Shown here piece after piece: positions 5,067-50,218 of a DNA stretch of 64,000 nt; the first letter of the stretch is position 1, and every line of letters begins with the position of its first letter. The notes beneath the pieces were generated by a model. It saw only the letters and a list, made by a program, of their open reading frames with translations, was not told the DNA's origin and made no database searches. Location: UHGV virus genome UHGV-0212524; one strand, given 5' to 3'. This DNA comes from a virus. Position numbers and translations under genes: made by a program.

Positions 5067-5089
5067 GGATAGATATTATCAATGGGAGA
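5067..5089 (+). promoter_or_regulatory. degenerate copy of the conserved promoter-like motif (GGATAGATATTATC..GGGAGA)
   Basis: matches the motif found at 26185, 30839, 46575 and 50194; sits after a terminator T-tract and upstream of gene 5179. Confidence 0.3.
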
Positions 5090-5178
5090 CTGTCAGTTGG
5101 TTTAAAGGAGACTTTATGGAAAAAATACATTTAAGACTAAAGATATGTACCATTATTAAAACTTAATCTGGCCCTTAC

Positions 5179-6189
5179 ATGAACCGTCTTGATATTGATG
5201 TGGTACCCAGTATTACTGACCGTTCGTTGTATCAAAGGTCAGGACTACAAAAACTCATCACTTTTGAGAATAATACTGGTGTGCCAATTTACGTCACTGA
5301 AACCAGTGGCGGTAGCTTTATTTTAACTCCGTCCAAAAGCCCGGCTGATGAGCATGGGGTTGTTGTTTATGTAACGTATCAATCGTTCGGAAATCTGGCT
5401 AACCTGAACGGCTTTGCAGAAGTCTTACCAGAAAAACAATTCACTAAATTTTGTGCAGATTTAAAGGAGAAAGGAGAGGTCACACTCCGATACGTGGTTG
5501 ACGATATCGGTGCTTTATTACGTGGGGACTTGGTTGTATTGAAGCAGCTAGGATTCGCTTTTTCAATTACACCAGTTCGATTAGAAAGTACGCCACCGAG
5601 CGTAAGACCAGGAGGTGAGAGAACTGAATTTACATTAGGTGTTATTGTTGTGCAGCGTTACGACGATCCCGAACTATATCGTTGGATTAGATTCTACGGA
5701 ACGCGCATGGAAGTACAACCGATACTATCACGGTATTACGAACCGGGTGTGTATATGGTAATCGGAGGTGGAGACAAAGTAGAAGGGAGCAGGATGATTC
5801 ACTTCGAGTTCGATGACTTATTGTCACCGTTCCGTGTTTTTAAAGATAAAGAAACAGCCACCGCGTTTCGATGGCAAGAAACGTTACCGGATATTCACGA
5901 GATAAAGGAAAAGCTGGAAAGTCAATACAGAGAAAAATTAGAAAGTTTGGATTCGGCAAAAGACAAACTGGAATTAGAACACAAAAAACAACTACAGAAT
6001 TTGGCTTTGGAAAAGGAGCGTTTGACTCTAGCGTATAAACAACAAGAACTAGAAGCAAAGTCTCGGGCAGAGGCACGAAAAGAATTCTACGAGACTCGTT
6101 CTTACATTCGTAAAGATGGGTCAGACCTATTTAAATCAGTCCCTGCGTATCTGGCGGCGGGTGTCGCATTTATAGGGATGCTAAAATAA
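5179..6189 (+). CDS. hypothetical protein, coiled-coil region plus C-terminal hydrophobic segment (336 aa)
   Basis: ORF; K/E/L-rich heptad-like region (KEKLESQYREKLESL...) and C-terminal AYLAAGVAFIGML. Confidence 0.55.
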   Translation: MNRLDIDVVPSITDRSLYQRSGLQKLITFENNTGVPIYVTETSGGSFILTPSKSPADEHGVVVYVTYQSFGNLANLNGFAEVLPEKQFTKFCADLKEKGEVTLRYVVDDIGALLRGDLVVLKQLGFAFSITPVRLESTPPSVRPGGERTEFTLGVIVVQRYDDPELYRWIRFYGTRMEVQPILSRYYEPGVYMVIGGGDKVEGSRMIHFEFDDLLSPFRVFKDKETATAFRWQETLPDIHEIKEKLESQYREKLESLDSAKDKLELEHKKQLQNLALEKERLTLAYKQQELEAKSRAEARKEFYETRSYIRKDGSDLFKSVPAYLAAGVAFIGMLK

Positions 6190-6199
6190 GGAGCGTGGC

Positions 6200-7975
6200 G
6201 TGTTTAAAGATGCAATCAGAAAGCTTAAAGAGGATGGCAAAATAGTACCCTTTAACCGAGCGATTGCGGAAGGTGTCGGTTATACACAGGCCAAAGACGG
6301 TATACACGAGCGTGTTCAGATTATCTTGAAACGTGAGCTGGATTATCATCCTGTTGATAATCCGCGTGTTCCTGAAGGGCTGGCTGTATTAGGTGTACGG
6401 TTAATGTCACCGTTTGAAACGTTCATCTATAAGCTGTCTCGTTCTGAGAGCAGCAGAATGGATAGACGTCGTGGTGTGATGTCCATTGCGAATACTGATG
6501 CGTATATGGTCATGTCAACATTCCGTATTCCAGGAGATTCTCGACCGATCTCAAGACCGATTAACTTACCCTTTATCCGTCGTGGTGGTTTAATGAACTA
6601 TTACGGTACGACGTATCACGTTGCACCGGTTATTCACCAGCCAGGTATCTGTCGCGAACACGGTGGGGTATTTGTTAACTTTGACTTTAAACGTAAAGCC
6701 TCGTTGAAATTCTGTAAGCAACCTGTCCGTGTGTTAGTCAACGGTAAAAAAGAGGAGCTATTCTTACCAGGAACCAAAAACCTGTTCAAAGCGAAGAACG
6801 CAACACATCCTGATACTGACGAGAAACCGTTAATGTATTGGTTGTTCGGACGTTACGGATTTAAAGAAGCGATTAAACGCTATACTGGTGTTGACGTAGA
6901 AATTTATCCATCGTTTAAGATCCCAGAACTCGATCTCAACGAGAAAGTTGTAATCAGTTCCGGTGAATCGAAATATAACCGTTCGATAATGTACGCGGTT
7001 GTCGTACCCGCAGAAGCATTGCCGAACGTGGATAAAGTTGGTTGGGATCAAAACGAGCATTTGTTGCTGGCCGCAATTGCTGCGTTCTTCAAAGCCGCTC
7101 ACTACTATTGCAGTAAACAATCCATTAAGAACGGTAACGTCACGCCGCTCCCGCCGCTGTTTACCGCAATTAACGAGTTAGCGATGGAAGACGATATTGC
7201 TAACCTGAACTCTGCTCCGATTTGGCGTGAGATTCTGGGAAGAAGTATCGTAGGACTGAAACCTTCCGATATTGAGTTAGCGCACAGTATGGCGAAACAC
7301 TATACTGAATGCGATCGCTACGTTAACTCAACGTTCCGTGCAGAACTGAAGATGACCGATCCTGACATTCCAGACGACATGGATATGTTTGATTTCTTCT
7401 GGTATGCAACGAAACTGATGGTACGTACCCGTTTGACTAAACAGGGTGACATTCCGTCGATGTACGGAAAACGTTTAACCGTAACTGACTACTTACTGTT
7501 AGGTGACCGTGGGTTTACACCAACGGTAGCGGCTATTCGTTTCCATCTGGGACAAACGGAGAATCGTTCGCCAGAATCCTGCGCGAATATGATTCGTAGC
7601 GCACTCAATAAAGAAATTGTCACGAGTCTGGTGTTGCGTAATATCACTGGTAACGGCGGTGTAAGTTATTTCAACGCATCAACAGAGTCCATGGTACTAG
7701 GAGTATCCACACACGCGATTAGTCAAACTGAAACGGAATCTAAACGTAACAGCAAAGGCGGTAAAACGGTTAACCTTAATGACCGTACGAAACACGCTTC
7801 TGCATCGCATCTGGAGTGCGGTAACGTTTATTACATTCCGAAATCGTCCCCGTTCAAATGGGGTATCCTTAACCCGTACATGAAAACTAGCCGTCAGTTA
7901 GTGATGGTTCGTAATCCAAAACTTGACGAGTTAATCCAAGCAACCGAAGAAGATATTGCGAAGATTGGCCGTTAA
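6200..7975 (+). CDS. hypothetical protein (591 aa)
   Basis: long ORF in operon context. Confidence 0.6.
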   Translation: MFKDAIRKLKEDGKIVPFNRAIAEGVGYTQAKDGIHERVQIILKRELDYHPVDNPRVPEGLAVLGVRLMSPFETFIYKLSRSESSRMDRRRGVMSIANTDAYMVMSTFRIPGDSRPISRPINLPFIRRGGLMNYYGTTYHVAPVIHQPGICREHGGVFVNFDFKRKASLKFCKQPVRVLVNGKKEELFLPGTKNLFKAKNATHPDTDEKPLMYWLFGRYGFKEAIKRYTGVDVEIYPSFKIPELDLNEKVVISSGESKYNRSIMYAVVVPAEALPNVDKVGWDQNEHLLLAAIAAFFKAAHYYCSKQSIKNGNVTPLPPLFTAINELAMEDDIANLNSAPIWREILGRSIVGLKPSDIELAHSMAKHYTECDRYVNSTFRAELKMTDPDIPDDMDMFDFFWYATKLMVRTRLTKQGDIPSMYGKRLTVTDYLLLGDRGFTPTVAAIRFHLGQTENRSPESCANMIRSALNKEIVTSLVLRNITGNGGVSYFNASTESMVLGVSTHAISQTETESKRNSKGGKTVNLNDRTKHASASHLECGNVYYIPKSSPFKWGILNPYMKTSRQLVMVRNPKLDELIQATEEDIAKIGR

Positions 7976-8014
7976 CCACGAAAGACGTATTAAGACCTAT
8001 TAGGAGAATTAAGA

Positions 8015-9960: not shown

Positions 9961-10006
9961 TTCCCCAATTTATTATAGCCGCCCACTATAGTGAGGGAAT
10001 GAGGAA

Positions 10007-10368: not shown

Positions 10369-13086
10369 TTAGAGAGTTTCATCGGTGTTGTCATCTGCGC
10401 CGGTATCCGTCTCGTCCGTGCCTTCAGTTGAAACGTCTTCTTCCGTCGTCGTATCGGTTTCCGTCGTTTCATCATCGGTCATGTCCAAGTCTTCATCACC
10501 GCCCAGATCGTCACCACCTAAGTCCTCATCGCCTCCTAAGCCACCATCGTCTTCAGTGCCGCCACCGAAGTCGCCGCCACCGCCGAAGTTATTGGCGTCT
10601 TCAGGATTCAGATCGGCTGCTTTTGCTAACGTCTGAACTTTACCTGTCGCACGTTTTGCTAACTGAATCAGCGTCTTCGATGCCGCTGCAATCTCATCAG
10701 AAATCATCTTGACGTTTTCACCACGTTTATCTTCATCGTAGATCAAATCAAACAGATCGGTTTCGATGCCCTGATTACGTAGCCAGTTGCGCGCGTAGAA
10801 GGTCTTAACCATCGTCTTGAGGTCATCAGGTGACATTTCAATACCTTCGTTCTGAAGCATATTAGCAATGTCATCCGTGACCACCAGATCTGCAAGTTTC
10901 TCGATAAATTCATAGCGTTTATCGAAGAGATCAGCTTGAGATGCTGTTGCAGAAGTATCAGGCGGTGGCAAGGTGACCTTCATACCGTTGATAAACTTCG
11001 CCATATACTCTGACGTTTGTTTTGTCATCTCTTCGCTAGATACATCCGGATTCTGCTCACGGATATACTCAACGATAATACGGATGAGTTCTGCTTGCAG
11101 TTTCGGTGAAGCTTGCAGACTGTTTGTAACGTAGCGCGTAAGCGGGGTTGAGAGGATTTCCTGTTTCTTCACAATCTGTTGAGTGACCAACAGCGATTTA
11201 GAATAAATCTGAGAAGCAAACTCCAGGTTCTCCGGGGTAAGTACAAGGTCAGGATCAACACACGCGATGTGACATGTACGGCGTAACAGGTTCTCGTCGA
11301 TTTGTTGATCAGGAACTTTATACTCCGGCGTGGTATCAGACACAGACACTTTGTGGCTGGCGTAGTAATCGTTACCCGTTACGTTAAAGGCAATCCCCGC
11401 GTTAGCCCCCATTGACCAGGCGTCGTTGATATCGCCCCACATCGGCAGGCGTCGATTGTAGGAATTAAGGATATCTGATTTAACTTGGTCAACGGTTTTT
11501 TGACCGTTTGCATCATCTGGTGACAGCTCAATGTCGTACTGCATGTGACGTGCCGAGTTCAGTACAGATGAGTTCATCGTTGCGAACAGCAGCGCCATCC
11601 TGACAGTAGAGATAATAAAGGAGCGCTCAGTAATAGAAACCCCGATACCATCTTCGTTAAAGTCGGTTGCAAAATAGCAAAGGTTATTAACCGGAATGTA
11701 AACCACCTGAGTATGACGTTTTGCGAGATGACGCGCTAACAGAATACGACCGAAAGTTTCGGTAATATTCATGCTGATTTCTGCGCCACCTAGTGCCTGA
11801 CTTAATGCGCGGGCAAATTCGTTTTCAGCGATTTCACCACAACGTGCACTTAAACGGTTGGCGATTTCCGGGGTAATACGAGAAGTGTTCCCTAAGCCCA
11901 GATTAGAACGGTTAATGATGCTGTCCGTCATCCCGTCGTTATTCAGGTAGTTCATAAAGTTCGCATCGCCGTACAGCGAGGAGCGAGCATTGATGAAGTT
12001 ACCCATGTCATCTACGATGGTCAGATAACCGATAGGGTTACGAACGTCATCGCCAATTACCAGTGGCAGCGTTGACTCTGCGGGCAGTAAACGTTCGATG
12101 TATTCGATTTTGTTATTCTCATCCATTGAGATAATAGGAATATCACCGTACGTTTGTGTTTTCGGTGTTGACTTATACGCCTCGTTTAAATCACCCAAGT
12201 TAATGAACCCTTTTTCAGCAGCGTCACGCTGACGGTCATCGAAAGATTGGTTAGGGTCGAACGGACTGCCACCGTTTGGTGTAGACGGCTTTTCATATGC
12301 GGCTTGCTCTAATTGCCCGTACAATCCCGTACGTGCGTTCTCATGCGCAATACGACGATACAAATCCGGTAGCATGGTAATGCGCGGGTTATCGGTAATC
12401 GTGATTTCCATCTGGAATTTATCCGAGAACATCGAATCGTGTTTACCGAAATCGATTTTCAACGTTTGAGGACCAGTAACGGCTCCGTGTAAACGGTTGA
12501 GAATTGATTCTACACCAACTCGCTGCCCTTCTTTCGGCGCATTAATAGGCCCGAGAATACCAAGCTGTTGTTCGAAGAACGCCGTTTGGGAACGACGAAC
12601 AGATTCAGTAGCGACCTTTGTATTCAGACCGAATAATTGGTCGAAGCCGGTATCCGAGATTATCATCACTGGACTTGCGCCTTTGGTTTTTAACGCATCG
12701 TAAATCCACTGATATAATTTCTTAGGTAGCTGACGAATGTTATCGTGATAATCACGGGTCGGTGTCAGTAGTGCGTTACGCAGATCAATGGGGATGTCCG
12801 CGATGTTGTCGTAAATCAACGTCGTGTTGATTAAGTCTTTTGTTGATAGCAGGCTCGAAGTTGCAATAGTAACGATTGTTTCGAGTTCAGGTAACGCATC
12901 AAAGATACGTTCCGCATTTTTGATAGTACGAATACGTGAACTCGCAATTGCCGTGAGTTCTTGACGTGTTGGCGTAGAACCACCCTCGCTACGCGTACCG
13001 CGTTGTTGCTGAGGTGCTGGGCCCGTAGTTTTACGAAGAATTGCAGCTACGGCGGGGTCGCCCGTTAATTTACTAATATCGTCCAT
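10369..13086 (-). CDS. large virion-associated protein candidate (possible portal), 905 aa, with acidic Gly/Asp/Thr-rich C-terminal tail
   Basis: long minus-strand ORF; C-terminal ~70 aa low-complexity acidic tail; position relative to putative capsid gene. Confidence 0.5.
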   Translation of the reverse strand: MDDISKLTGDPAVAAILRKTTGPAPQQQRGTRSEGGSTPTRQELTAIASSRIRTIKNAERIFDALPELETIVTIATSSLLSTKDLINTTLIYDNIADIPIDLRNALLTPTRDYHDNIRQLPKKLYQWIYDALKTKGASPVMIISDTGFDQLFGLNTKVATESVRRSQTAFFEQQLGILGPINAPKEGQRVGVESILNRLHGAVTGPQTLKIDFGKHDSMFSDKFQMEITITDNPRITMLPDLYRRIAHENARTGLYGQLEQAAYEKPSTPNGGSPFDPNQSFDDRQRDAAEKGFINLGDLNEAYKSTPKTQTYGDIPIISMDENNKIEYIERLLPAESTLPLVIGDDVRNPIGYLTIVDDMGNFINARSSLYGDANFMNYLNNDGMTDSIINRSNLGLGNTSRITPEIANRLSARCGEIAENEFARALSQALGGAEISMNITETFGRILLARHLAKRHTQVVYIPVNNLCYFATDFNEDGIGVSITERSFIISTVRMALLFATMNSSVLNSARHMQYDIELSPDDANGQKTVDQVKSDILNSYNRRLPMWGDINDAWSMGANAGIAFNVTGNDYYASHKVSVSDTTPEYKVPDQQIDENLLRRTCHIACVDPDLVLTPENLEFASQIYSKSLLVTQQIVKKQEILSTPLTRYVTNSLQASPKLQAELIRIIVEYIREQNPDVSSEEMTKQTSEYMAKFINGMKVTLPPPDTSATASQADLFDKRYEFIEKLADLVVTDDIANMLQNEGIEMSPDDLKTMVKTFYARNWLRNQGIETDLFDLIYDEDKRGENVKMISDEIAAASKTLIQLAKRATGKVQTLAKAADLNPEDANNFGGGGDFGGGTEDDGGLGGDEDLGGDDLGGDEDLDMTDDETTETDTTTEEDVSTEGTDETDTGADDNTDETL

Positions 13087-15281
13087 TGGGGTCTCCGATG
13101 CAGAGATTTAACATATTTCGTGAACAGAACATCGCGTTGGCGAAATCACTGATTATTAAATCAGAATCAATCGCACAACAGATGAATCTGGCAATAACCG
13201 AGAACGGCGGTTTCGTTTCCGATAACCGAAGTACGTGGCGATACTACCTGCATTTAGCAGGACAACGTCACGAATGGGATAAGCCCATTTACATAACGTC
13301 GCTCGACACGCAAGAGCAGATAGAATTAACGACAGCCAACCTGTCCCGTCATAAAAAGACCTCAAACGTATTTCGTTCGAACGGCGGGTACATTGAGGAG
13401 CTGATCAGAACGTATCCTGACTACGCGATTTATATCCGGGGTGTGTTTAATCCGGTGGATATAAACTACGCCATCCGTGTGGCTGACTGCTCTATCCTCT
13501 ATTACGACAGTTCATTAGTGGAGTCGCAAGAGACGTCACTGATGTCGAGATTGGAAGACAGAATAAGGGCAGCTCACGTTCGCTATATGTCAGAAGGGTG
13601 GAAAGTTCACAACGATGCGTTCGTGTTAGCATTCTACTGTATTCTGTATCCGCAGTTACCCGGCATCATCGGGTATATTCGTTCTTCTTTACAGCATACC
13701 ACGGAAACGCATTCGTTTTACGTGACAGAGTTCTTAGCATCACACCAAGAACTTCACGAGTTTATGCCGTATTTGACCCAGAAACAGAAATTCATTCTTT
13801 ATCGGAATATTCGTTACTGGGAACGTAACTCAGGGAAAGAGGAGATTTTCGACTGGCAGATTGATGCGCTACTGACAGGTTGGGGGATGCCTGCGGTTGG
13901 GTATAATGTTGCGCAGCAAATACACGAACCGAAGGATGATGACGATTCCACGTTAACGCCGTTACCGATCGGTTATCAGCAATCGCTTAACTATACGGAA
14001 AAGGACTCTGGTCGAGACCTTGACATTGTAACAACGACGGACATCATCCAGAAGGAAGTCGCGTTAGCGTACAATAACCCGGCGTACGAACCGGAGTATC
14101 AGGAAGACTTAGATACCCGTTTAAGTTTAACGCAATACCCTAACCTGAAAACCAAACTCATTGAAGTTACAGCAGTCGACCCAGAAGCGATTGAGCGCTT
14201 CGAGTATCTGCATAACCTCTTTAACGAATGGGTACATCTCGTCGCGAAAGGGAAATACAACATTTACCACGAGATTCTTAACCCAACAAACGGGGATACC
14301 TTAAAGCTTAGCTCAAAAGAGTTATTGGCGCTGTTCTTGTACGCGGCGTATAAAGGGTATTCTGACGTTGCGTTAGAAAAGATTCCTGTGTTCAACGTGT
14401 TCGGGGTGTTAATCAAACGCTGGGTTTCATTCGATGAAATGGAACAACATTTAATCCCGAGCTGGGAAAACCGTTTCGATGCGTTGATTAACTATTATAC
14501 CGATACGCACACAGAAGTCGTCGGAACGATTCTTAGTGCTGATGAACTTTACGACACGGTTAATGAAATCATTACCCAGAAACGACGTCGTTGGCGTTAT
14601 AGCCAAAACCGTCGGAAGATTCCTGACCGTGCAGCGGGTATGATGCTGTTTAACTACCATTACCGTGATTATCGTTGCGATTTAAAACTGAACTATCGTA
14701 ACTACGATGAGTTCTTTAAAACGTTTGGGTTAGACTATACGTTGGTTTCGGCGGAGACGTGGCAAGACATTGCTATTGACGCATTTAACACCGCAACTAA
14801 CCTGGAAACCCGCGCAACGATTTCACAGTCTGAGATTCAGCGTGCAATGGTACGACTGATGACGAAGTTGTCATCCTACACCGTACATTTTGCTGCACGA
14901 ATGGGGTCAGATTCTTACGACGTTATGGACCCGCTCTGTCCTATCTTAGGGGATATCCCTATGAGTGGGGAGGGGTCGATTACCATTATTGAACCCCTCT
15001 TAGGCGTACAGCAAGTTACGCGTCACCAGTATATGTCCACCGACACTGTGTTACCGGCAGCGCCTGTTATTAAAGAACTGTCGATGCCACAGCACATCAA
15101 ACTCAGGATGAACATTTACATGGGTATCCGAGTGAAAGTAACACAGCAGGTTGTGGTGGATATTAACGAGCCGACTACCGGGGTTGTTAAAGTGAAATCT
15201 TCGCTTGACGATTGGACGTTAAACGAACAGGTGAAAATTAACGATCTGGACGGCTTCACGCTTGACCAGCTACCTAAGTGA
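13086..15281 (+). CDS. hypothetical protein (731 aa)
   Basis: long ORF, divergent from 10369..13086; no Walker A motif found. Confidence 0.6.
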   Translation: MGSPMQRFNIFREQNIALAKSLIIKSESIAQQMNLAITENGGFVSDNRSTWRYYLHLAGQRHEWDKPIYITSLDTQEQIELTTANLSRHKKTSNVFRSNGGYIEELIRTYPDYAIYIRGVFNPVDINYAIRVADCSILYYDSSLVESQETSLMSRLEDRIRAAHVRYMSEGWKVHNDAFVLAFYCILYPQLPGIIGYIRSSLQHTTETHSFYVTEFLASHQELHEFMPYLTQKQKFILYRNIRYWERNSGKEEIFDWQIDALLTGWGMPAVGYNVAQQIHEPKDDDDSTLTPLPIGYQQSLNYTEKDSGRDLDIVTTTDIIQKEVALAYNNPAYEPEYQEDLDTRLSLTQYPNLKTKLIEVTAVDPEAIERFEYLHNLFNEWVHLVAKGKYNIYHEILNPTNGDTLKLSSKELLALFLYAAYKGYSDVALEKIPVFNVFGVLIKRWVSFDEMEQHLIPSWENRFDALINYYTDTHTEVVGTILSADELYDTVNEIITQKRRRWRYSQNRRKIPDRAAGMMLFNYHYRDYRCDLKLNYRNYDEFFKTFGLDYTLVSAETWQDIAIDAFNTATNLETRATISQSEIQRAMVRLMTKLSSYTVHFAARMGSDSYDVMDPLCPILGDIPMSGEGSITIIEPLLGVQQVTRHQYMSTDTVLPAAPVIKELSMPQHIKLRMNIYMGIRVKVTQQVVVDINEPTTGVVKVKSSLDDWTLNEQVKINDLDGFTLDQLPK

Positions 15282-42800: not shown

Positions 42801-44272
42801 GTAATCAGGATACTACTGGCAATGCCGCTACCGCGACGAAACTGAAAACCGCTCGCAGAATCGGCGGCGTTACCTTTGACGGTACTGGGGATATCAATTT
42901 ACCGGGGGTTAACCAGCAAGGCAACCAGAATACGACAGGTAATGCAGCGACCGCTACTAAGTTACAAACAGCACGTAAGATCGGCGGTGTTAACTTTGAC
43001 GGTTCGCAAGACATTAGTCTGCCCGGTGTAAACCAGACGGGTAATCAGTCGACTACCGGAAACGCAGCCACGGCAACAAAGTTGCAGACAGCGCGTACCA
43101 TTAACGGTATCGCATTTGACGGTACTAGAAATATATCGTTAGGGCCTGCCGATATAGGTTGTCCGGCTTCGCCCACTGGTTGGTTGGAGACTGGTAAAGA
43201 CGGCGGCGCAATAACTACAGCACAGCTAGTGACGTTATTGCAAAATAACGGCGCGTTTACCACAAAATCATGGGTTGCTCGCTGTGCATGGGCTTATGCT
43301 GCTAGTGCGTCCATACCGAACAGCGAGACGGGTTGTGGTGTTATTCCGTTAGCTGGGGCTGTTATAGAAGTGATTAGTAACAGCGCAAACAACTACACGA
43401 TCCGTATAACGACCCCCACAACGACGAGCGTCGGCGGCGCACTCACTAATGCGGAGTTTATCTACGTAAATAACGGTGATGCTTACTCACCAGGTTGGCG
43501 TCGCGCTTACAATACGAAAAACAAGCCAACTGCTGCGGATGTTGGGGCGTTGCCATTATCTGGCGGTCAATTGAATGGTGTGCTGACGCTGCAAAATGTG
43601 AGTCAGCCTCTCAAGACGCCGGGTGGCGGCATTCTGGCAAATGATGGAAATTTATACATCAATAAGTCAGGATTTGCAGGCTGGATTGATGCGCTGTTTT
43701 TGAAGAACAGCGGCGGTACTGTCACTGGCGATTTAACGGTTAACGGTAAACTGGTTACGAAGTATGCTGATTTCCGAATCGCTTACGGTAGCTGCGGTTT
43801 CATTTTACGTAATGATGGTGCCAATACCTATTTCTTAGTAACCGACTCCGGACAAGCCGCAACGGGTTCCTGGAACGGACTACGTCCGTTGTATTTTAAT
43901 AACTCTAACGGTCAAGTAACCTTTGGTCATAACATTTCTAGCAACGGTAACGGTTCGTTTAACGACGTACAGATTCGTTCTGACCGTCGCAACAAACGTA
44001 ATCTGGTGAAGCTGGATAAGGCTTTGGATCGGTTAGAAGCGCTTACCGGCTATCTGTACGAGGTTCAACATCCAGACGACGGTTGGAACACTTCGGTAGG
44101 TCTAATTGCTCAAGACGCATTAGAAGCGTTACCTGAACTTGTGTCTGAGGATGATGATGCCATTTCAGGCGAAAAACGTTTACGTCTAAACTACAATGGC
44201 GTTATTGCGCTGTTAGTAGAGGGTATGAAAGCGTTGCGTCAAGAGGTTAACGAAATTAAAGGAAGATCCTAA
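39806..44272 (+). CDS. long tail fibre protein (1488 aa) with phage tail-fibre repeats and C-terminal S74-type intramolecular chaperone domain
   Basis: Ala/Thr/Gln-rich N-terminal shaft; five or six copies of GNAATATKLQTARxIGGVxFDGSGDINL; C-terminal SDRRNKRNLVKLDKALDRLEALTGYLYE...NYNGVIALLVEGMKALRQEV typical of auto-cleaving chaperone domains (T5 pb1 / K1F endosialidase type). Confidence 0.85.
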   Translation: MAKAVKKIRLHDLRPYTGDIGEGVLLFSKDEKDYKLPVREIVADIDTVRNAVSDAQTAATQSQEAATQATQAKNLAETAKQQTDTVAATVAQQAQTVTEKATEVGTKHTEVLAAKTAVDTQVVSVNEKAQAVAASEANVTQAVTTVTKKAETVATQAGQVEQSLTAVNEAVASVESSKAAVEATATQVTTDKETAENAATRSEAAAKRAEEIAAKGNVDATTTSKGIVRLNNTLSSDSVTEAATPSTVKQLNEDLQLKANRHNPTFTGVVKAPTPASDSNDTSVSTTAWVRQAIAELVDSSPETLDTLSEIAAALGNDPNFATTMTNQLAGKQPLSPLLTAIAAVTTAANKLPYFTGSNQVGLADFTSTARDLLAKGSTADIINFLGLKTTVDKAAGAMQRSSNGADIPDKVTFAKNIGLSAETYLKFNGEMAVDADINTFGPVEAFMGVWSKATSTNATIAKNFPEDDAVGYLEVFKAGNYSGSQRFTIRNGNVYTRRLTGTWNGTNGPWSPWRMTTTANRPLSTTIDLNTLGGVEHMGQWRNSSSSLATFDRHYPEEGGNAQGVLEVMEGGLYGRMQRYTTRRGTMYVRGLTATWDASNPQWEDWIQVGYQVDGAYYKGSFNDLTKPGRFSVTGEATDGPLTDSAGATLLGVCEVTLRLDGSGVEQNYTTYGTGATTKGRKFQRIRTGNAWSEWREIFTSYSLPLALGIGGVAAKVDPLDWQTFDFVPGQMISTPLNTMKNIPAGMDWGVIDGNLVSILVGASEDTGTGRSMLVWRGTVSTANYRFFAVRIAGEKGSRTITPRQMPVLNAAHTWAEKQTFAKGLAGELTGNASTATKLQTARRIGGVAFDGSGDVNLPGVNQQGNQNTTGNAATATKLQTARNINGVKFDGSGDININTLVGRGRVTALTGSNKGTPGIQMYEVYNNGYPTAYGNLLHLGGANALGEGELLIGWSGTSGAHAPVYIRSRRDTADAPWSDWAQVYTARDSIPGVNTTGNQDTTGNAATATKLKTARRIGGVTFDGTGDINLPGVNQQGNQNTTGNAATATKLQTARKIGGVNFDGSQDISLPGVNQTGNQSTTGNAATATKLQTARTINGIAFDGTRNISLGPADIGCPASPTGWLETGKDGGAITTAQLVTLLQNNGAFTTKSWVARCAWAYAASASIPNSETGCGVIPLAGAVIEVISNSANNYTIRITTPTTTSVGGALTNAEFIYVNNGDAYSPGWRRAYNTKNKPTAADVGALPLSGGQLNGVLTLQNVSQPLKTPGGGILANDGNLYINKSGFAGWIDALFLKNSGGTVTGDLTVNGKLVTKYADFRIAYGSCGFILRNDGANTYFLVTDSGQAATGSWNGLRPLYFNNSNGQVTFGHNISSNGNGSFNDVQIRSDRRNKRNLVKLDKALDRLEALTGYLYEVQHPDDGWNTSVGLIAQDALEALPELVSEDDDAISGEKRLRLNYNGVIALLVEGMKALRQEVNEIKGRS
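42298..43140 (+). repeat. in-frame ~120-nt tandem repeats encoding the tail-fibre repeat units (two clusters)
   Basis: repeated DNA and peptide units inside the fibre gene; they also generate antisense ORFs on the minus strand. Confidence 0.8.
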
Positions 44273-45054
44273 TGGCAGTTGTCGGCGTAGGTGGTTGGAT
44301 TGGTTCTTCAGCAAAAGCTGAAACTGGTAACGATTGGATGTCTGGCGCGATGCGCACACTTGGTGTGCCGGTTCCAGGCTGGATGTCGCAATTGGCGGGA
44401 AAATCAAAAGAGGTTCAGTATTCGATCGGGGCTAATCACAATTACAATAAAGATACGCTTATTAACTATTTACGTTCTATAGGCTCTAATGCTGTCGTTG
44501 TGACCATTACAGGGGATTTAGTGTCTTATAGTAGCGGGGTTCCTTGTTTAGAATTCCCTAGCAATCTTCCAAATTCGTATATTACACTCATCATCAATCC
44601 TGGGGTTACAGTATACGGCAGAGGAGGCAACGGCGGTTCTAACTCACCAGGCGGTGCAGGTGGAACCGCAATACAGAACGGAATAGGAAACAGACTGCGT
44701 ATAACCAACCGTGGCGCTATTGCCGGAGGCGGTGGCGGCGGTGGCGGCGGTAACAGGGGTAGACTAATATTTGGTGGTGGCGGTGGTCGCCCATTCGGTG
44801 CTGGTGGGTCTTCCTCACATATGAGTTCCGGTGCAGCTGCTGGTACTATTTCCGCTCCTGGTAGAGGATCTGTTGGTGAGGGGTCTCTTAGTGCATATAC
44901 AGGCGGTTCGGGTGGTAATGTCGGTGCTGCTGGAGGAAGATGTAATACTCATGGTAACGGTACAGAATATAACGGCGGAGCCGCTGGTGCAGCCGTTAGA
45001 GGTAATGCGCCAAGATGGGACGCAGTAGGTGCAATATATGGTTCACGTGTTTAA
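44272..45054 (+). CDS. glycine-rich protein (260 aa), adhesin/fibre-tip candidate
   Basis: ATGA-type overlap with the fibre gene; poly-Gly runs (GGGGGGGGGN, FGGGGGRPFGAGG); N-terminus shared with 45115..45618. Confidence 0.5.
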   Translation: MAVVGVGGWIGSSAKAETGNDWMSGAMRTLGVPVPGWMSQLAGKSKEVQYSIGANHNYNKDTLINYLRSIGSNAVVVTITGDLVSYSSGVPCLEFPSNLPNSYITLIINPGVTVYGRGGNGGSNSPGGAGGTAIQNGIGNRLRITNRGAIAGGGGGGGGGNRGRLIFGGGGGRPFGAGGSSSHMSSGAAAGTISAPGRGSVGEGSLSAYTGGSGGNVGAAGGRCNTHGNGTEYNGGAAGAAVRGNAPRWDAVGAIYGSRV

Positions 45055-45114: not shown

Positions 45115-45618
45115 ATGGGGGTAGCATCTGGATGGGTCGGTTCTTCGGCCAAGAACGAAACGGGCGAACAATGGATGAGTGCTGCTGGTAGTAAATTAGG
45201 ATTGGGTAGACCTTTTATGATGAGTCAAATGGTGGGCCGATCTCTTGGCTGTAAAATCGCAACTGCTGCATATAGCGATTCAATGGCTAAATTTTGGGGT
45301 GCGGTGGGACCAAACTGGCCGTTAGCGCAGAAAAATAAAGGGACTATTCAGAATCCTGGTAGCTGCGGCGTAGGCACACTTATTGGTATCCAACTACTAT
45401 TGATCACATTGGCTGCTGATGCAAAACCAAGTTTAGCGGTCTATTTACAAGGTGGGAGAGCTTCTAACATCACCGTAAATCTAGGCGGCAACACTTGTAC
45501 GGTAGCCTATCAGCAGGTTATTAATGGTCAACATTATTACTGGACCTCTAACATTAGCACTGCTTTCCAAAACGTGATGAAATCAACCGGCACATTAAGA
45601 GATTTGAAGATTAGTTAA
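45115..45618 (+). CDS. hypothetical protein sharing an N-terminal domain with the Gly-rich protein
   Basis: MGVASGWVGSSAKNETGEQWMS versus MAVVGVGGWIGSSAKAETGNDWMS. Confidence 0.5.
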   Translation: MGVASGWVGSSAKNETGEQWMSAAGSKLGLGRPFMMSQMVGRSLGCKIATAAYSDSMAKFWGAVGPNWPLAQKNKGTIQNPGSCGVGTLIGIQLLLITLAADAKPSLAVYLQGGRASNITVNLGGNTCTVAYQQVINGQHYYWTSNISTAFQNVMKSTGTLRDLKIS

Positions 45619-45648
45619 TAATTTTCAAGCGAATGTGCTTGAAAACGT

Positions 45649-45895
45649 AATCGGGGGGGGGGGTGAAATGTTTTTAGCCACCATTTTATGTCTCCCCAAG
45701 CATAGGAGGTAACCATACGTGGAACATTTCACGCCTGTTTGGGCGTTAACTTAAGTAAAAAACGATCACTCGAATCTGCTATAAAAAGCAATCGGGGGGT
45801 GGTGAAATGTTTATAGACAACTTTTTATGTCTCTCCAATCATAGGAGGTAACCATACGTGGAACAATTCACGCCTGATTTGTCGTTAACTTCACT
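45649..45895 (+). repeat. tandem duplication (~105 bp units, ~139 bp period) of the promoter/RBS/first codons of gene 45858
   Basis: copy 1 at ~45649-45752 and copy 2 at ~45789-45895 share AATCGGGGGG..GTGAAATGTTT..TTTTATGTCTC..CATAGGAGGTAACCATACGTGGAACA.TTCACGCCTG; copy 1 retains a GTG-initiated 11-codon remnant ORF (45719..45754). Confidence 0.7.
45653..45663 (+). repeat. G11 homopolymeric tract
   Basis: eleven consecutive G in copy 1 of the duplicated upstream region; copy 2 has GGGGGGTGG. Confidence 0.8.
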
Positions 45896-46370
45896 TAACA
45901 TGGTTATTTCACTGGTTAACCATGACCTCCAGCTCGACCTGCAAGAGAACGAGGTTGAAGTCAGCGACGTAAAGACCAGTAACGAAATGGATCGTGACAC
46001 CACTGCTGTTGTAAAGATAAAACGTCCTGGTAACAGAACGTTACAAATCTATTACAACCGTTTAACCGCAGAGCGGTGGTTAAACCAGCAACCTATTCTG
46101 GTAAAGGTTTCCGGTAATGGTTTTACCGCACACGATCTAATCGACGGAATTAACGCGGCTTGCGGTTGTAATTTACAACCCGACGATCTTACCGACGAAT
46201 CATTTACCGTAGGGAAAGACGCTGTAACGTTACAGGTTTCACCCAACTCGTTAGGTTATAAAGGCCAATTCTCCGTTCTGGTTTTCGGTAACGACGAAGA
46301 AGCCGCTGTAGTAAAAGACAACGATTTAATCGTTACCGCAGATAATCGCGTCTTAACCTTTGGTGGTTAA
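45858..46370 (+). CDS. paralog-family protein (170 aa), paralog of 35731..36294
   Basis: GTG start with TAGGAGGT RBS; conserved PDLSLTS, YYNRL and CGCNLQPDDL motifs. Confidence 0.55.
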   Translation: MEQFTPDLSLTSLNMVISLVNHDLQLDLQENEVEVSDVKTSNEMDRDTTAVVKIKRPGNRTLQIYYNRLTAERWLNQQPILVKVSGNGFTAHDLIDGINAACGCNLQPDDLTDESFTVGKDAVTLQVSPNSLGYKGQFSVLVFGNDEEAAVVKDNDLIVTADNRVLTFGG

Positions 46371-46528: not shown

Positions 46529-46576
46529 AGGTAGTAGGGGCTAAGCCCCTACTACCTTTCTTTTTTATTTTTTCTC
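46529..46576 (+). terminator. rho-independent terminator
   Basis: AGGTAGTAGGGG-CTAA-GCCCCTACTACCT hairpin plus T-tract. Confidence 0.8.
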
Positions 46577-46599
46577 AGATATATATTACCTAGGGGAGA
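46575..46599 (+). promoter_or_regulatory. conserved promoter-like motif TCAGATATATATTACCTAGGGGAGA
   Basis: contains TATATTAC; directly after a terminator T-tract; followed by an inverted repeat (GAGAGCGAA..TTCGCTCT). Confidence 0.45.
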
Positions 46600-46744
46600 G
46601 CGAAATTTACATTCGCTCTATTAGTTATAGCCGAAAGGAGGATTAGTTCTATCACCCGTATTATCTGTTCTGGTGAATTGGGTGAAGATAAAAAATCGTG
46701 TTTGATAAATTAGTTGAAGACTACGTTAAGAAAGAGGGACAATT

Positions 46745-47188
46745 ATGAAACCAAATACTACTAACGGCATTATGTTACTTTGTGATTCTGAAACGTTAGC
46801 AAATCGTATTCGTGGTTTGATGCAAGTACGTTGGCAGCAAAAGGTTTGCGTGGACTATGCTGCACCGTTTGTTCACGTTACCTGGCTACCAGAAGCTAAC
46901 GATTTTAAAGAGAGTATAACCACGAGAAGAATTAAAGATTGGTTAATGGCAATCATTAACAAACGGATTACCGTTATCAATTTCCAGTTGTTCGGTAGTA
47001 AAGAAGAACACGATACCTTAAAACGCTGTTTAAGGGGATTGGATCTTGCCTTTTCTGTTCGTGGAAACTGTTACACAGCGTTCTTCATCGGTTCTCTTGA
47101 GTTATTTCAGGGAACATTAAACATTCAACTAAAAGAAGATTACGGGATCGTAAATAAGATTGATTTCGAATTCCCAGCAATGATTTAA
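46745..47188 (+). CDS. hypothetical protein (147 aa)
   Basis: ORF with AAGAAAGAGGG RBS region. Confidence 0.55.
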   Translation: MKPNTTNGIMLLCDSETLANRIRGLMQVRWQQKVCVDYAAPFVHVTWLPEANDFKESITTRRIKDWLMAIINKRITVINFQLFGSKEEHDTLKRCLRGLDLAFSVRGNCYTAFFIGSLELFQGTLNIQLKEDYGIVNKIDFEFPAMI

Positions 47189-47199
47189 GGAGGAGTAGC

Positions 47200-48042
47200 A
47201 TGTTTCAGTTCGAACTCACCGAAGAAGAAAAGGTTATCAACAAGTTTAAAATTTCCCCTATCCCTACTGAGGATCAAATTAAAGAAATCACTGAGCTACA
47301 AAACACGTACACGTTTTACTATAAAGTTAAATCAGAAGCGTTTAACATTTTCTGGGTAGAAGGCGAGGTCGATTTCCCTAACAAGCTCATTAGTGCGGTT
47401 ATGGATATTTTAGTACGGGCTGTTGAGACGCCTAAAGATCCAGAAATTCCGGATCAAATGACTTGTAGGCTAAAAGACAAGCCAACTGCGAAAGACGTCG
47501 CTTACTTCACAGACGAGATTCCACTTACCCCCAAACAGGCAGGTAAAATCGGTTCGATATTATACCTTTTTTACAACGACAAATTCACTTATCTGGTTGA
47601 AAACAACGTGCTTAAAGTGAACTATGAAGGTGCTACTTATCGCGCTTTTTTAAATAACCTATTGAATGACATAGAGAAAGAAAATATTCTGCTATTTACA
47701 GTTGAGGATATTAGCGAGGCCGATGCTGCCGAGTTTATTCGCGCAGTGAAAGATGAACACGAACACCATCTATTTATAATTTATCAAAGCAAATATCTTG
47801 AAGGTAACCTGAATCTCTTGATCCCAAACAAACCATGGGTTCTTAAAGTTCTGGAACCCCTTGCGCAGAAAATTAAGAGAGATGGTGAATATTTTAAACA
47901 CGTTCTCAAGAAATACGAAAAAGAAATCAGCGAACGACTTTCACGCCACTTTTTTGGACAGCTAGAAGCTCACGTTGGCGAATACGCCCAGCTGTTTGAT
48001 AGATTTTGTAACGAGATGAGAGAAGTTCGGAATCTTAAATAA
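47200..48042 (+). CDS. hypothetical protein (280 aa) with EADxFIR-type module
   Basis: ILLFTVEDISEADAAEFIRAVKDEHEHH resembles modules repeated in 52001..53167. Confidence 0.55.
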   Translation: MFQFELTEEEKVINKFKISPIPTEDQIKEITELQNTYTFYYKVKSEAFNIFWVEGEVDFPNKLISAVMDILVRAVETPKDPEIPDQMTCRLKDKPTAKDVAYFTDEIPLTPKQAGKIGSILYLFYNDKFTYLVENNVLKVNYEGATYRAFLNNLLNDIEKENILLFTVEDISEADAAEFIRAVKDEHEHHLFIIYQSKYLEGNLNLLIPNKPWVLKVLEPLAQKIKRDGEYFKHVLKKYEKEISERLSRHFFGQLEAHVGEYAQLFDRFCNEMREVRNLK

Positions 48043-48084
48043 CGAAGGCTTAATTACCCCACTATTTACCTAAAGGAGCATTAA

Positions 48085-48600
48085 ATGTCTGTAACAATCA
48101 ACATGAATCTTTATACCAAACGTGAACGTCAAATCTTGGCTAATCAGCCAGGTGTTACTACGATTGACGGTAAACCTATCGACCCATTAAAAGTCGTTGT
48201 CGCACACAACTGTTTCGAGAAAGACTGGGACATCATGTATTTCCGTTGCCGTTCTGTCGCCAACGCACTTACCCAGCTCTCGAATTATCATCCTGGCCCA
48301 GTATTAAAAGACTGGGTTTGGTTAGTCCCTAAAACACCTTCAGCGATTGAGTATCCGTCGGGTATGGTCTATATTCGTCCTGTCGCTTATCCAGAACGTT
48401 TAAAAGAATATCTGGAGGTTATCTGGGACCGACCTCGTAAAGAGCTGGTGACGATTATCCGTTTACTTCAAATGTGCGATATCCCCAATGTTTCGAATCT
48501 GAAACTTACGTCTCGCGATATTAACCAGGCTTACTGGGAACTAGAGTGGACAGAACCGAAATTCGAAAACACTAACCGTATTTTCTTGCACCGGGGGTAA
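48085..48600 (+). CDS. hypothetical protein (171 aa)
   Basis: ORF. Confidence 0.55.
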   Translation: MSVTINMNLYTKRERQILANQPGVTTIDGKPIDPLKVVVAHNCFEKDWDIMYFRCRSVANALTQLSNYHPGPVLKDWVWLVPKTPSAIEYPSGMVYIRPVAYPERLKEYLEVIWDRPRKELVTIIRLLQMCDIPNVSNLKLTSRDINQAYWELEWTEPKFENTNRIFLHRG

Positions 48601-48602
48601 AA

Positions 48603-48884
48603 ATGTTAGATTGGTTGTTGGGTTTAATTAACTCACGTCAACAGGAGCTTTATAAAGAAAACACGCGGTTACGGCAGCAGCTTAGTAACAATCGTCAAAC
48701 CAAACGACAGTTAATTCGGATGGTAAAACAACAGGCGCGCTGTATACGCGATATCGATTATCAGTATCACCGTCTGAATACCTTAGACCCAACAACAAAA
48801 GCTTTAGGCAGTACGATTGGACACGCACGGAAAGTCAGTCACGACGCGTTAGTTCGAATCGACACAATAGAAGAGAAGCTGTGA
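48603..48884 (+). CDS. hypothetical protein (93 aa)
   Basis: ORF followed by a perfect palindrome. Confidence 0.5.
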   Translation: MLDWLLGLINSRQQELYKENTRLRQQLSNNRQTKRQLIRMVKQQARCIRDIDYQYHRLNTLDPTTKALGSTIGHARKVSHDALVRIDTIEEKL

Positions 48885-48926
48885 TATAACCCCTCTCAGG
48901 AATTCCTGAGAGGGTGGAGTAACAAT

Positions 48927-49301
48927 ATGTCATTACTGTTATACAAATTCAGATGTTGGCTAGACACCTCGTTTAAAACCTGGGCTTGTGGTGAGAATGT
49001 CAGAACGATCGTTAAAGCAACAGACTGGTATACCGAAATTGTGGTACTCCCTGACGGTAAACTAATTAATGTTCAGGTACGCAATATCACCGTCAGGATA
49101 GGTCGTAAAGGCGGTGCTATTTTTCTTCCCGAACTCTATCTGGTTTCTGCATTGGAACTGAAAGCAGGACCGATGTTATTTGGTCGAACAGCGCAACACT
49201 ATTTCGATACGCTTATTAAACTTAGTAATAGTGTAAAGAAATTAGGTGAGTCGGTCCATAGATTTATTAAAGAAACTGAACGAACTACGGTGGAGATTTA
49301 A
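48927..49301 (+). CDS. hypothetical protein (124 aa)
   Basis: ORF. Confidence 0.5.
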   Translation: MSLLLYKFRCWLDTSFKTWACGENVRTIVKATDWYTEIVVLPDGKLINVQVRNITVRIGRKGGAIFLPELYLVSALELKAGPMLFGRTAQHYFDTLIKLSNSVKKLGESVHRFIKETERTTVEI

Positions 49302-49304
49302 AAG

Positions 49305-49613
49305 ATGGAAAGTAAAATCACGAACACATCAGCACCTGAGAACATTGTCAACTATATTCTCAGTGGCGGATTGTTAGAAGACAATAAAGAAACGTGCGAT
49401 AAACTCGTTTCTCAACTACTGCCGATTCGTTCAGAATACTGCGAAGTCGTTATCTTGGGTTCTGAGTATTGCGTACGTTCTTACTGTCGTCGTTTCGAAG
49501 CCTTACGTGTTCCACGTACGTTAGGTGGCGTGATACTCTTAGTCTCTAACTTTCACAATGCACACGTTCGTGTTGCAACCTGGATTGCTAACGGTGGTAA
49601 CAATGGTTTTTAA
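49305..49613 (+). CDS. hypothetical protein (102 aa)
   Basis: ORF. Confidence 0.5.
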   Translation: MESKITNTSAPENIVNYILSGGLLEDNKETCDKLVSQLLPIRSEYCEVVILGSEYCVRSYCRRFEALRVPRTLGGVILLVSNFHNAHVRVATWIANGGNNGF

Positions 49614-49911
49614 ATTGTTAGGTTTCGGAAAATGCAAAGAGTGTGCAAAGCACGAAGAATATATCAAGTTATTAGAAGAAACAGTTGAAACGCAAAAAGA
49701 ACTTATCTCTGAATACCGCGCGAAAACCGGTTCAGTGGAATATCTGACCATCCTTGTTTGTGCTATTGCTGAATTGGGTTGTGAGGGAAAATTACCTAAA
49801 GAAGAGATATTAAAATTATTAAAAGAAAAAACAGAGTTCTACCGTAAAGAAATTGATGATTATAAACGTGAAGTTATAAGAGCGAATTGGGAGGTTATTA
49901 ATGAAGCGTGA
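49603..49911 (+). CDS. hypothetical protein (102 aa, internal ATG start)
   Basis: ATG at 49603 with GGTGG RBS; CxxC near N-terminus (GKCKEC). Confidence 0.45.
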   Translation: MVFKLLGFGKCKECAKHEEYIKLLEETVETQKELISEYRAKTGSVEYLTILVCAIAELGCEGKLPKEEILKLLKEKTEFYRKEIDDYKREVIRANWEVINEA

Positions 49912-50182
49912 AACGGTTGTATTTCGTAGTAATGGTGATGTGGTTTTGTATCGTGGTAAGAAACGTATTCGTACGTTAGAATACCGAGAAGCAAAACGTT
50001 TTGTTGAAGAGTGTGCATGGTTAATGCATTACGAAGGGAACTATCGTGCTATCTTAGAAGCACCGCGTTTAGAACGTGCGGTTGCACAGATGGCGATAGG
50101 TAATCCTAAGAACTGTTACCTGGCACGTAAGCCAAAATACCTACAGCGGCTTTCGTTAGGTAGCTTTATTGCGGGGTTTTAA
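49901..50182 (+). CDS. hypothetical protein (93 aa)
   Basis: ORF. Confidence 0.5.
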   Translation: MKRETVVFRSNGDVVLYRGKKRIRTLEYREAKRFVEECAWLMHYEGNYRAILEAPRLERAVAQMAIGNPKNCYLARKPKYLQRLSLGSFIAGF

Positions 50183-50193
50183 TAAAAATAATT

Positions 50194-50218
50194 TCAGATA
50201 TATATTACCTAGGTGAGA
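50194..50218 (+). promoter_or_regulatory. conserved promoter-like motif TCAGATATATATTACCTAGGTGAGA
   Basis: contains TATATTAC; followed by inverted repeat GTGAGAG..CTCTCAC and CTTAACTAAA; upstream of gene 50265. Confidence 0.45.

Follow-up and report, generated by a model that had tools for sequence, protein, structure and literature searches.

Candidate phiKZ-type early promoters, most strong copies followed by a 5′-terminal RNA hairpin, in an uncultured SPN3US-like jumbo phage

The virus genome UHGV-0212524 was analysed over a stretch of 64,000 nucleotides (hereafter the window), in which an extended AT-rich motif is repeated five times upstream of genes. We consider it very likely that these five sites are early promoters of the phiKZ type, used by a phage-specific virion RNA polymerase (vRNAP), the strong ones being followed by a 5′ hairpin that is likely to protect the 5′ end of the mRNA. 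Elements of this kind are already known, and the finding is expected for such a phage. The hairpin on most strong copies is only a mildly new point; its association with one promoter sub-type and the detection of a second motif class are modest additions.

An extended motif occurs at five intergenic sites

The motif covers about 45 nt around the core (T)CAGATAKATATTAYC-N3-G-N-GAGA and is present in five copies, at positions 5065, 26185, 30840, 46575 and 50194. A preliminary description of the window, made without database searches, had listed three near-identical copies and two variants. The string TCAGATAKATATTACC is indeed exact at 26185, 46575 and 50194, and both variants were recovered, at 5065 and 30840. 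The optional T proposed for some copies does not exist, all five sites being aligned without gaps as T.AGATAKATATTAYC-N3-G-N-GAGA (CTTAGTGAGA / CTAGGGGAGA).

When up to three mismatches are allowed, five matches are found against 0.61 expected, a number reached in none of 100 shuffles. One of these five, a match with three mismatches at 18668, lies inside a gene without the rest of the motif and was not retained as a site. A position matrix of the family, for which 53 distinct instances from this phage and related ones were used, detects exactly the five sites of the window (37-64 bits); all other positions on both strands score below 5 bits, as do 20 shuffles. All five sites lie between genes, on the + strand, and have the orientation of the next gene, whose start codon follows after 35-150 nt. 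Random occurrence inside genes, which the preliminary description had named as an observation that would speak against promoters, was seen for the bare 8-mer TATATTAC, which is not enriched (4 copies versus 2.2 expected) and of which the copies at 21175 and 44578 fall within genes, whereas the five sites of the extended motif are intergenic and no shuffle contains one; the significance lies in the extended motif only. None of the large blocks of virion genes (10369-25379 and 36722-45054) is headed by the motif.

The motif is conserved in SPN3US-like jumbo phages

The window encodes a PhiKZ-type major capsid protein (2711-4996; PF25620 PhiKZ_MCP, E 9e-208) that is 78-80% identical to those of the Erwinia phages phiEaH2 and Asesino and of the Salmonella phage SPN3US. 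It also encodes, at 6200-7975 on the + strand, a homologue of PHIKZ123 (phrog hit; PDB 7ogp_E PHIKZ123, E 1.8e-17); PHIKZ123 is, like PHIKZ055, a subunit of the solved non-virion RNA polymerase (nvRNAP) of phiKZ (PDB 7ogp). Virion genes predominate in the 64 kb, with large proteins of the virion and tail and a long tail fibre among their products; a DnaB-like helicase is encoded as well, and the gene order is shared with SPN3US and Asesino. Based on the capsid protein, the PHIKZ123 homologue, the protein identities and the gene order, the window can be assigned to an uncultured member of the SPN3US-like branch of phiKZ-like (Chimalliviridae) jumbo phages. A megablast search with 8 kb of the window retrieved no near-identical phage among GenBank phages; jumbo contigs with 89-99% identity are present in IMG/VR, the one at 99% being IMGVR_UViG_3300045988_095954. 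The motif is hence found in a phiKZ-like genome with multisubunit RNA polymerases of its own: close relatives of the window encode the 1401-aa RNA polymerase-like large subunit of SPN3US, which is annotated beside the tail fibre in that phage.

SPN3US and Asesino have the motif at syntenic places, in many cases without a single base change (TTTCAGATATATATTACCTAGGTGAGA). Of the 20 sites in the complete SPN3US genome, 19 are intergenic and every one is on the + strand; shuffles contain none, so that in both genomes the motif is over-represented, strand-consistent, intergenic and located at operon heads. An exact-pattern scan of the 2.9 million viral contigs of IMG/VR led to 29 stretches, all of them on jumbo contigs of 150-246 kb except for one on a 7-kb fragment. 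In the window, SPN3US and Asesino alike, a site is located after the capsid gene and before the gene of the PHIKZ123 homologue. In SPN3US, the operon that encodes the PHIKZ055 homologue is also preceded by sites, at 15633 and 15726. The SPN3US gene preceding this last homologue was considered as a nuclear-shell protein (chimallin), in search of a parallel to the validated early promoter of phiKZ gp054; BLASTP, Pfam and PDB searches were empty and this candidate was dropped.

The motif corresponds to the early promoters of phiKZ-like phages

The preliminary description had equated the core of the motif with the early-promoter consensus of phiKZ, which Ceyssens et al. reportedly defined in 2014 as TATATTAC. 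This attribution is correct: TATATTAC is given as the phiKZ core in Table 2 of PMC7058600 and is present at the own sites of phiKZ, where the same layout is observed (tttaaacag or ttaagata, then TATATTAC, N6 and G). The predicted early promoters listed in the same table are TTTCARRYAKATATTATYWAAGTGWA for OBP and N1M2 (N1M2, TBYAWWWWWTTTCARRYAKATATTATYWAAGTGWA; OBP, ...TTTYARRYAKATATTATYWWADTG) and ...TATATTACDWHDGTG for 201phi2-1 (...TTTRARR-BTATATTACDWHDGTG), and the extended motif of the window nearly coincides with those of the three phages. The AT-rich element of about 10 nt, with its TATATTAC-like core and upstream T/A-rich tract, is thus recognizable in our alignments, in the published strings and at the phiKZ sites.

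Motifs of this class have their centre near -10 in phiKZ-like phages, upstream of the transcription start site (TSS) (PMC7598289); the phiKZ early promoters, refined by differential RNA sequencing (dRNA-seq), combine an extended -10 element with a T-rich tract (PMC8244752), and the TSSs of 201phi2-1 are located about 10 bp after the AT-rich motif (PMC11512511). In phiKZ and 201phi2-1 the class is tied to early transcription by the virion polymerase, and it is the early consensus wherever transcripts have been profiled (PMC7598289, PMC8244752, PMC11512511). Infection by phiKZ-like phages is also insensitive to rifampicin (PMC13282480). The phiKZ-like genome, the match to the published consensus and these experiments in relatives support the early-promoter interpretation of the preliminary description, the polymerase and the timing being deduced by homology. 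The TSS is predicted to be the first G of GAGA, with a margin of about 2 nt (5086, 26206, 30861, 46596 and 50215) because the TSS of 201phi2-1 maps to the final G of GTG with the same precision. We found no phage paper containing literally the extended SPN3US-type consensus in a literature search that did not extend to Ceyssens 2014 and the OBP genome paper.

These data suggest the following model. Each promoter would be composed of an A/T-rich tract (about -40 to -22), TTTCAG (about -27 to -22), the element ATAKATATTAYC (about -21 to -6), which is an AT-rich and extended "-10", and a (G/T)G initiator; RNA synthesis would begin 7 nt after TAC, on the first G of GAGA. A multisubunit vRNAP injected with the DNA would recognize these sites in the absence of host sigma factor and transcribe small accessory genes organized in operons; the ATTATC variant at 5065 would drive an operon with a nvRNAP subunit. 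Terminators located just upstream would insulate each unit.

Most strong candidate promoters are followed by a predicted hairpin at the 5′ end of the transcript

At three sites, the inverted repeat that the preliminary description had reported to start at GAGA is predicted to fold into a hairpin at the 5′ end of the transcript, on the + strand: GAGAUUAC-AUC-GUAAUCUC at 26206-26224 (eight pairs from +1, -8.2 kcal/mol), AGAGCGAA-AUUUACA-UUCGCUCU at 46597-46619 (from +2, -10.6 kcal/mol; leader z = -2.26) and GAGAGU-UCAGCU-ACUCUC at 50215-50232 (from +1, -8.4 kcal/mol; leader z = -2.90). The repeat is minimal at 30861 (3 bp in the RNA) and absent at 5086. The conserved stem-loop once proposed for all copies is therefore statistically real in strong sites, but two of the five sites of the window have no convincing one. 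The hairpin 26206-26224 differs only by its loop in the relative L007, and 50215-50232 is kept with a loop change in L022 and L017. In L017 and L024, a compensatory C>U / G>A double change has occurred in 46597-46619 (GAGAGUGAA...UUCACUCC), replacing GCGAA/UUCGC by GUGAA/UUCAC.

Across relatives, a 5′-terminal hairpin at the predicted +1 was detected in 34 of 38 strong sites, versus 22% of 1500 GAGA-anchored controls. Shuffling of the 26-nt tail that follows GAGA yielded a mean of 12.7 out of 38 and a maximum of 24, and the hairpin is still present at 14 of the 18 sites of a non-redundant set from which orthologous duplicates were removed. The sequence of the stem varies from site to site (GAGAUUAC, AGAGCGAA, GAGAGU, GAGAUUGC, AGAUGAG, GAUAGA), and its positions 5-8 are occupied by UA, GC, AU and CG pairs, all four Watson-Crick orientations. 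The hairpin is separate from the ribosome-binding site and lies, given the inferred TSS, no more than 2 nt from the 5′ end of the sense RNA, its structure being conserved rather than its sequence. No Rfam match was obtained anywhere in the window. Such a +1 hairpin is not mentioned in the portions of the jumbo-phage transcription literature covered by our search, from which Ceyssens 2014, the OBP genome paper and the figures were left out.

G-U pairs represent 15 of the 119 pairs, and the sense strand folds on average more stably than the antisense strand (-5.5 versus -4.1 kcal/mol; Wilcoxon p = 2e-4). These G-U pairs and this strand bias point to a selection acting on RNA rather than on a DNA cruciform. 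They also bear on an alternative that we consider unlikely, in which the repeat at +1 would act at the level of DNA or initiation, by forming a cruciform, by helping the DNA to melt, as an operator or as a signal for pausing or attenuation of the phage polymerase. The vRNAP of phage N4 uses promoter DNA hairpins, and the repeat studied here overlaps the start and even reaches -2 in two sites (GTGAGAGT...ACTCTCAC and GTGAGAATTCTCAC), but the differences between the stems make a sequence-specific operator unlikely, and promoters without hairpin are conserved too. The sequence downstream of the TSS matters for the nvRNAP promoters of phiKZ (PMC7598289) and premature termination occurs in 5′ untranslated regions of 201phi2-1 (PMC11512511), whereas the hairpins 26206-26224 and 30861 were not flagged as terminator-like in a terminator scan of 20-32 kb.

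We thus favour a role of the hairpin in the RNA, probably as an mRNA 5′-end protector, by analogy with a mechanism known in bacteria. In Escherichia coli, work on mRNA decay has established that 5′ ends can be protected from RppH and from the 5′ sensor of RNase E. The first 18-24 nt of TATTACC-type transcripts would fold into a hairpin from +1 or +2, hide the 5′ end from RppH and from the 5′-end-dependent decay by RNase E, and in this way stabilize the first viral mRNAs. The phage phiKZ has an RNase E inhibitor, Dip (gp037); no match to this protein was detected by tblastn in SPN3US or in the window (E > 1), which is weak negative evidence.

The hairpin is associated with one of two sub-types of candidate promoters

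The sites can be divided into two sub-types. The ATTATC-type sites (for example 72703, 184063 and 23829 in SPN3US; 5065-5080 in the window) contain the palindrome AGATA-GATAT-TATCT, mostly lack the 5′ hairpin and precede conserved core genes, among them those of nvRNAP subunits. The hairpin is found at the TATTACC-type sites, which precede small accessory genes. In SPN3US, the hairpin is present at all seven TATTACY sites versus 3 of the 13 ATTATC-type sites (Fisher p = 0.003). This distribution suggests two grades or classes of early promoter.

The confinement of the hairpin to one subclass, and the fact that it always starts with GAGA, would also fit a recognition tag for a phage or host factor involved in mRNA handling, in export from the early infection (EPI) vesicle or in preferential translation, mRNA exit from this vesicle being an open question (PMC13282480). 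We regard such a tag as slightly less probable than an action on DNA: the loops and distal stems vary in sequence and length, no Rfam family corresponds to them, no candidate binding protein was identified and the conservation of GAGA is equally well explained by an initiation preference. The link between the hairpin and one promoter sub-type is relevant to the question of how nucleus-forming phages keep their first mRNAs intact in the presence of host RNases.

A second conserved motif could correspond to another promoter class

The look-alikes that the preliminary description had noticed near 9971, 17965 and 25440 do not belong to the same family (less than 5 bits); they correspond to a different conserved motif, TTACRWY-N12-TGTGA, in its fuller form TTAC(A/G)(A/T)Y-N12-(T/A)(G/A)TG(A/T). 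The window contains TTACAAT-N12-TGTGA at 17964-17987, at the same place as in SPN3US and Asesino, and TTACAAC-N12-TGTGA both at 25434-25457 and at 26982-27005, the latter upstream of a GNAT / Dam-methylase operon. These three copies are exact for TTACAAY-N12-TGTGA, and a fourth, at 32237-32260, has AATGA; all four are intergenic and on the + strand. A related element with spacing increased by one, TTATTATAG-N7-CTATAGTGAGG at 9970-9994 (+), is found almost base for base in SPN3US and Asesino. With the relaxed pattern, there are 4 matches in the window versus 0.78 in shuffles and 12 in SPN3US versus 2.1; the SPN3US positions on record are 23010, 57122, 72639, 85597, 93462, 100137, 109925 and 181016. 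The motif usually follows a terminator, mostly 40-60 nt before the start codon, and is conserved in place across genera. At the position of 25434, the relative L028 and SPN3US carry an ATTATC-type early-like site, suggesting that an early-type element has decayed in the window.

The second motif shares with the early one a T-rich lead, a TTAC-like heptamer near -20 and a TG start, whereas the AT-rich -10 block is absent. It is probably another promoter class and, by analogy, most likely serves the nvRNAP; it may be the middle or late class of SPN3US-like phages. Published middle promoters of phiKZ-like phages have a weak motif near -22/-24 and late ones TATG only (PMC7598289, PMC8244752). A joint reading can be proposed tentatively, in which the TATTACC-GTGAGA grade obligatorily has a 5′ hairpin and the palindromic AGATAGATATTATCT grade, that of polymerase and core genes, does not, the hairpin being a lineage-specific RNA device, scarce in phiKZ, which has Dip instead, and serving to protect the first mRNAs or mark them for exit from the early infection vesicle, and TTACRWY-N12-TGTGA being the middle promoter.

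Probable assignment of the promoters to the virion polymerase

In an alternative reading, the five sites would be middle or late nvRNAP promoters, or be shared by both phage polymerases. Virion genes dominate the window, TATG is present in site 30840, and the second class, located before other operons, has the same initiator (T)GTGAG. Likewise, the systematic differences between ATTATC- and TATTACC-type sites might mean that one of them belongs to another temporal class, and some nvRNAP genes of 201phi2-1 are read from middle or late promoters (PMC11512511). We nevertheless judge this option improbable, since the middle and late promoters published for phiKZ-like phages lack a strong upstream motif, the motif of the window coincides with the early consensus and the large blocks of virion genes are not headed by it. 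Strong host sigma-70 promoters are more improbable still: the core contains TATATT (a -10-like string) and ATATTA, the A/T-rich upstream tract resembles an UP element and the motif is common to phages of different enterobacterial hosts, but about 45 nt are conserved, including the CAGATA, ACC and GTGAGA start that are irrelevant to sigma-70, the 45-nt profile from all family sites has no conserved -35, the scan of 20-32 kb for -35/-10 hexamers spaced by 16-18 nt, which covers two of the five sites, had no match at 26185 or 30840 and 14 matches in total versus a shuffle mean of 17.3, and the related phiKZ develops independently of the host RNA polymerase (PMC7598289, PMC13282480).

Early promoters of the vRNAP remain our preferred assignment, and several points have to be set against it. 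The vRNAP genes are outside the window and are known from close relatives and the SPN3US annotation only. The TSS, the timing and the polymerase rest on analogy with phiKZ and 201phi2-1. The genes downstream of the sites are small unknowns, a neighbour of the GNAT/Dam region and operons with PHIKZ123 and PHIKZ055 homologues; as the nvRNAP genes of 201phi2-1 do not all have early promoters (PMC11512511), this gene-class argument is soft. As for the hairpin, it is missing at two of the five sites of the window and present at only two of seven sampled phiKZ sites, indicating that it is not required for promoter function. The hairpins are also modest (-6 to -10 kcal/mol), and part of the signal comes from the fixed purine-rich GAGA start combined with pyrimidine-rich leaders, the tail shuffles already reaching 33%. 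Finally, many instances are orthologues, though the effect persists in the non-redundant set.

Organization of the five sites

The terminator T-tract that had been described before each copy is present, with its hairpin, directly upstream of three sites only, 5065, 26185 and 46575. Only an A/T-rich tract, itself part of the promoter consensus, precedes 30840 and 50194.

Site 1 (5045-5089, +; 43.5 bits) represents the ATTATC variant ("class B"). Its sequence is TTGGATAGATATTATCAATGGGAGA, preceded by an A/T-rich tract; the predicted TSS is G5086 and no 5′ hairpin follows (fold z = +0.68). Just upstream, an intrinsic terminator read from the sequence (GTCTAAGCCC-TTCG-GGGCTTAGAC then a T-tract; 5012-5035, +) would end the transcript of the capsid gene. 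Orthologues of the site are present after the capsid gene in SPN3US (72505 and 72703) and in Asesino. Downstream are the conserved hypothetical gene 5179-6189 (+), the first after the site, and that of the PHIKZ123 homologue, with matches to phrog_7286 and phrog_2943. Directly after site 1 there is also a 16-codon open reading frame (ORF) at 5117-5167 (MEKIHLRLKICTIIKT), with a good AAGGAG site, which is kept in the relatives L015 and L016. A 270-aa gene occupies its place in Asesino, and a second promoter copy then follows in SPN3US and Asesino.

Site 2 (26165-26209, +) is the exact class A match TCAGATAGATATTACCTTAGTGAGA (51.6 bits), with a predicted TSS at G26206, and is also present in the close relatives L007 and L028. 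The terminator CCCCTACC-TTCG-GGTAGGGG with its T-tract, detected by the terminator scan at 26149-26168 (+), adjoins it upstream. Site 3 (30820-30864, +; 37.1 bits) is the weakest variant, TAAGATATATTTCATCTATGTGAGA, with a predicted TSS at G30861. It is a hybrid, no more than two mismatches away from the second motif class, and its short RNA hairpin corresponds to the palindrome GTGAGAATTCTCAC in the DNA (fold z = -0.74).

Site 4 (46555-46599, +), the exact class A match TCAGATATATATTACCTAGGGGAGA (52.9 bits), has its predicted TSS at G46596, about 150 nt before the ORF starting at 46745, and is preceded by the terminator GGTAGTAGGGGC-TAA-GCCCCTACTACC with a T-tract (46530-46556, +; read from the sequence). 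This cassette is the strongest combination of terminator and promoter. Its unusually long leader (46596-46745) has a second predicted hairpin that encloses AGGAGG, no ATG, GTG or TTG being present at the usual distance, in a stretch that is not conserved in L024; this region might contain a short ORF that begins in an unusual way, or be a structured leader. Site 5 (50174-50218, +), the class A copy closest to the family consensus, is the exact match TTTCAGATATATATTACCTAGGTGAGA (63.8 bits), with a predicted TSS at G50215 and no canonical terminator upstream.

Sites 4 and 5 are followed, at 46745-53668 (+; ORF list), by blocks of small genes without family matches, exemplified by 46745-47188, 47200-48042 and 50265-50759, which had no match in PHROG or Pfam. 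The GC content of this region is about 0.40, versus 0.46 elsewhere, and low GC is typical of accessory early genes.

Two additional sequence blocks were observed around promoters of this family. Many SPN3US-like relatives have a conserved GATTAW block at about -41 to -36, just 5′ of the A/T tract, reminiscent of TTAWTAVAA in the 201phi2-1 consensus; the only similar stretch in the window is 50174-50185 (TTAATAA). The other block, a box TTGACTATCAAGGAG located some 25-40 nt downstream of the predicted start and containing the ribosome-binding site, is common to the hairpin-bearing leaders of SPN3US/Erwinia-type relatives (L004, L006, L008, L019, L029, L031 and others) and is absent from the leaders of the window.

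Other features of the window

The tail fibre gene (39806-44272) encodes a protein of 1488 aa with a trimerisation domain of the T4 gp34 type and a C-terminal S74 intramolecular chaperone. It is inserted after a conserved tail protein gene (36722-39727), at a place where SPN3US has small genes, which suggests the exchange of a host-range module. At 45613-45898, about 140 nt are duplicated imperfectly in tandem (87% identity over 105 nt); the duplication includes a G-run, a strong AGGAGG and a GTG start. Its first copy opens an ORF of 11 codons only and its second a 170-aa ORF (45858-46370). The two neighbouring ORFs, 45115-45618 and 45858-46370, share no similarity.

Altogether, the transcription units predicted for this uncultured member of the SPN3US-like jumbo phages form a clean map, which would extend the early-promoter grammar of phiKZ-like phages to this lineage. 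This should help annotation, the prediction of early genes (host takeover, anti-defence) and the design of phage-specific expression parts.

Comparison with known systems

The association of a virion-carried polymerase with early promoters containing an inverted repeat recalls phage N4. In N4, the promoter determinant is a DNA hairpin located upstream of +1, which a single-subunit enzyme reads; the repeat described here follows +1 and is variable in sequence, rich in G-U and dispensable in many sites. The predicted hairpins are closer to those of the E. coli ompA leader and of the phage T7 gene 10 leader (GGGAGA...), 5′-terminal stem-loops that stabilize mRNAs: they are short, 0-2 nt from the 5′ end, upstream of the ribosome-binding site and separate from it, with a purine-rich start (GAGA). 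The polymerase and promoter are unrelated in that case, and the function proposed here is deduced from the position and from the strand-specific folding.

The promoters of 201phi2-1 (TTAWTAVAA-HYWTTTRARR-BTATATTACDWHDGTG), with TSSs mapped by ONT-cappable-seq and six sites confirmed experimentally (PMC11512511), share with the window the three blocks near -30, -20 and -10, and their transcripts start, to within about 2 nt, at the last G of GTG. This phage has another host and belongs to another lineage, and no 5′ hairpin was reported for it, hairpins or stem-loops being mentioned in terminator contexts only (PMC11512511). The resemblance to OBP and N1M2 (TTTCARRYAKATATTATYWAAGTGWA; PMC7058600 Table 2) is almost position for position, including TTTCA, RYAKATATTA and the GTG start, and the window site 5065 (GGATAGATATTATC) is exactly of their ATTATC type. 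The strong sites of the window differ by ACC instead of ATY and by GAGA after GTG. The OBP and N1M2 motifs are bioinformatic predictions, and the available portion of PMC7058600 describes no hairpin; a scan of IMG/VR for OBP/N1M2-type motifs found few instances, too few to judge hairpins in that lineage.

With respect to phiKZ, the consensus of the window is longer and tighter (CAGATAKATATTACCTAGGTGAGA); the GAGA start is conserved, either G or T stands two bases ahead of the ATATTA core (AGATAKATATTA), there are the two sub-types TATTACC and ATTATC, and a 5′-terminal hairpin is present in about 90% of strong sites, versus two of seven sampled sites in phiKZ. Both nevertheless share the TATATTAC / ATATTAC core, the T/A-rich upstream tract, a G start 7 nt after the core and, just 5′ of it, TTT-R-AG-A-T (tttaaacagTATATTAC and ttaagataTATATTAC in phiKZ). 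In both, the sites are intergenic, co-oriented with operons of small unknown genes and of the nvRNAP, and number about 20-30 per genome.

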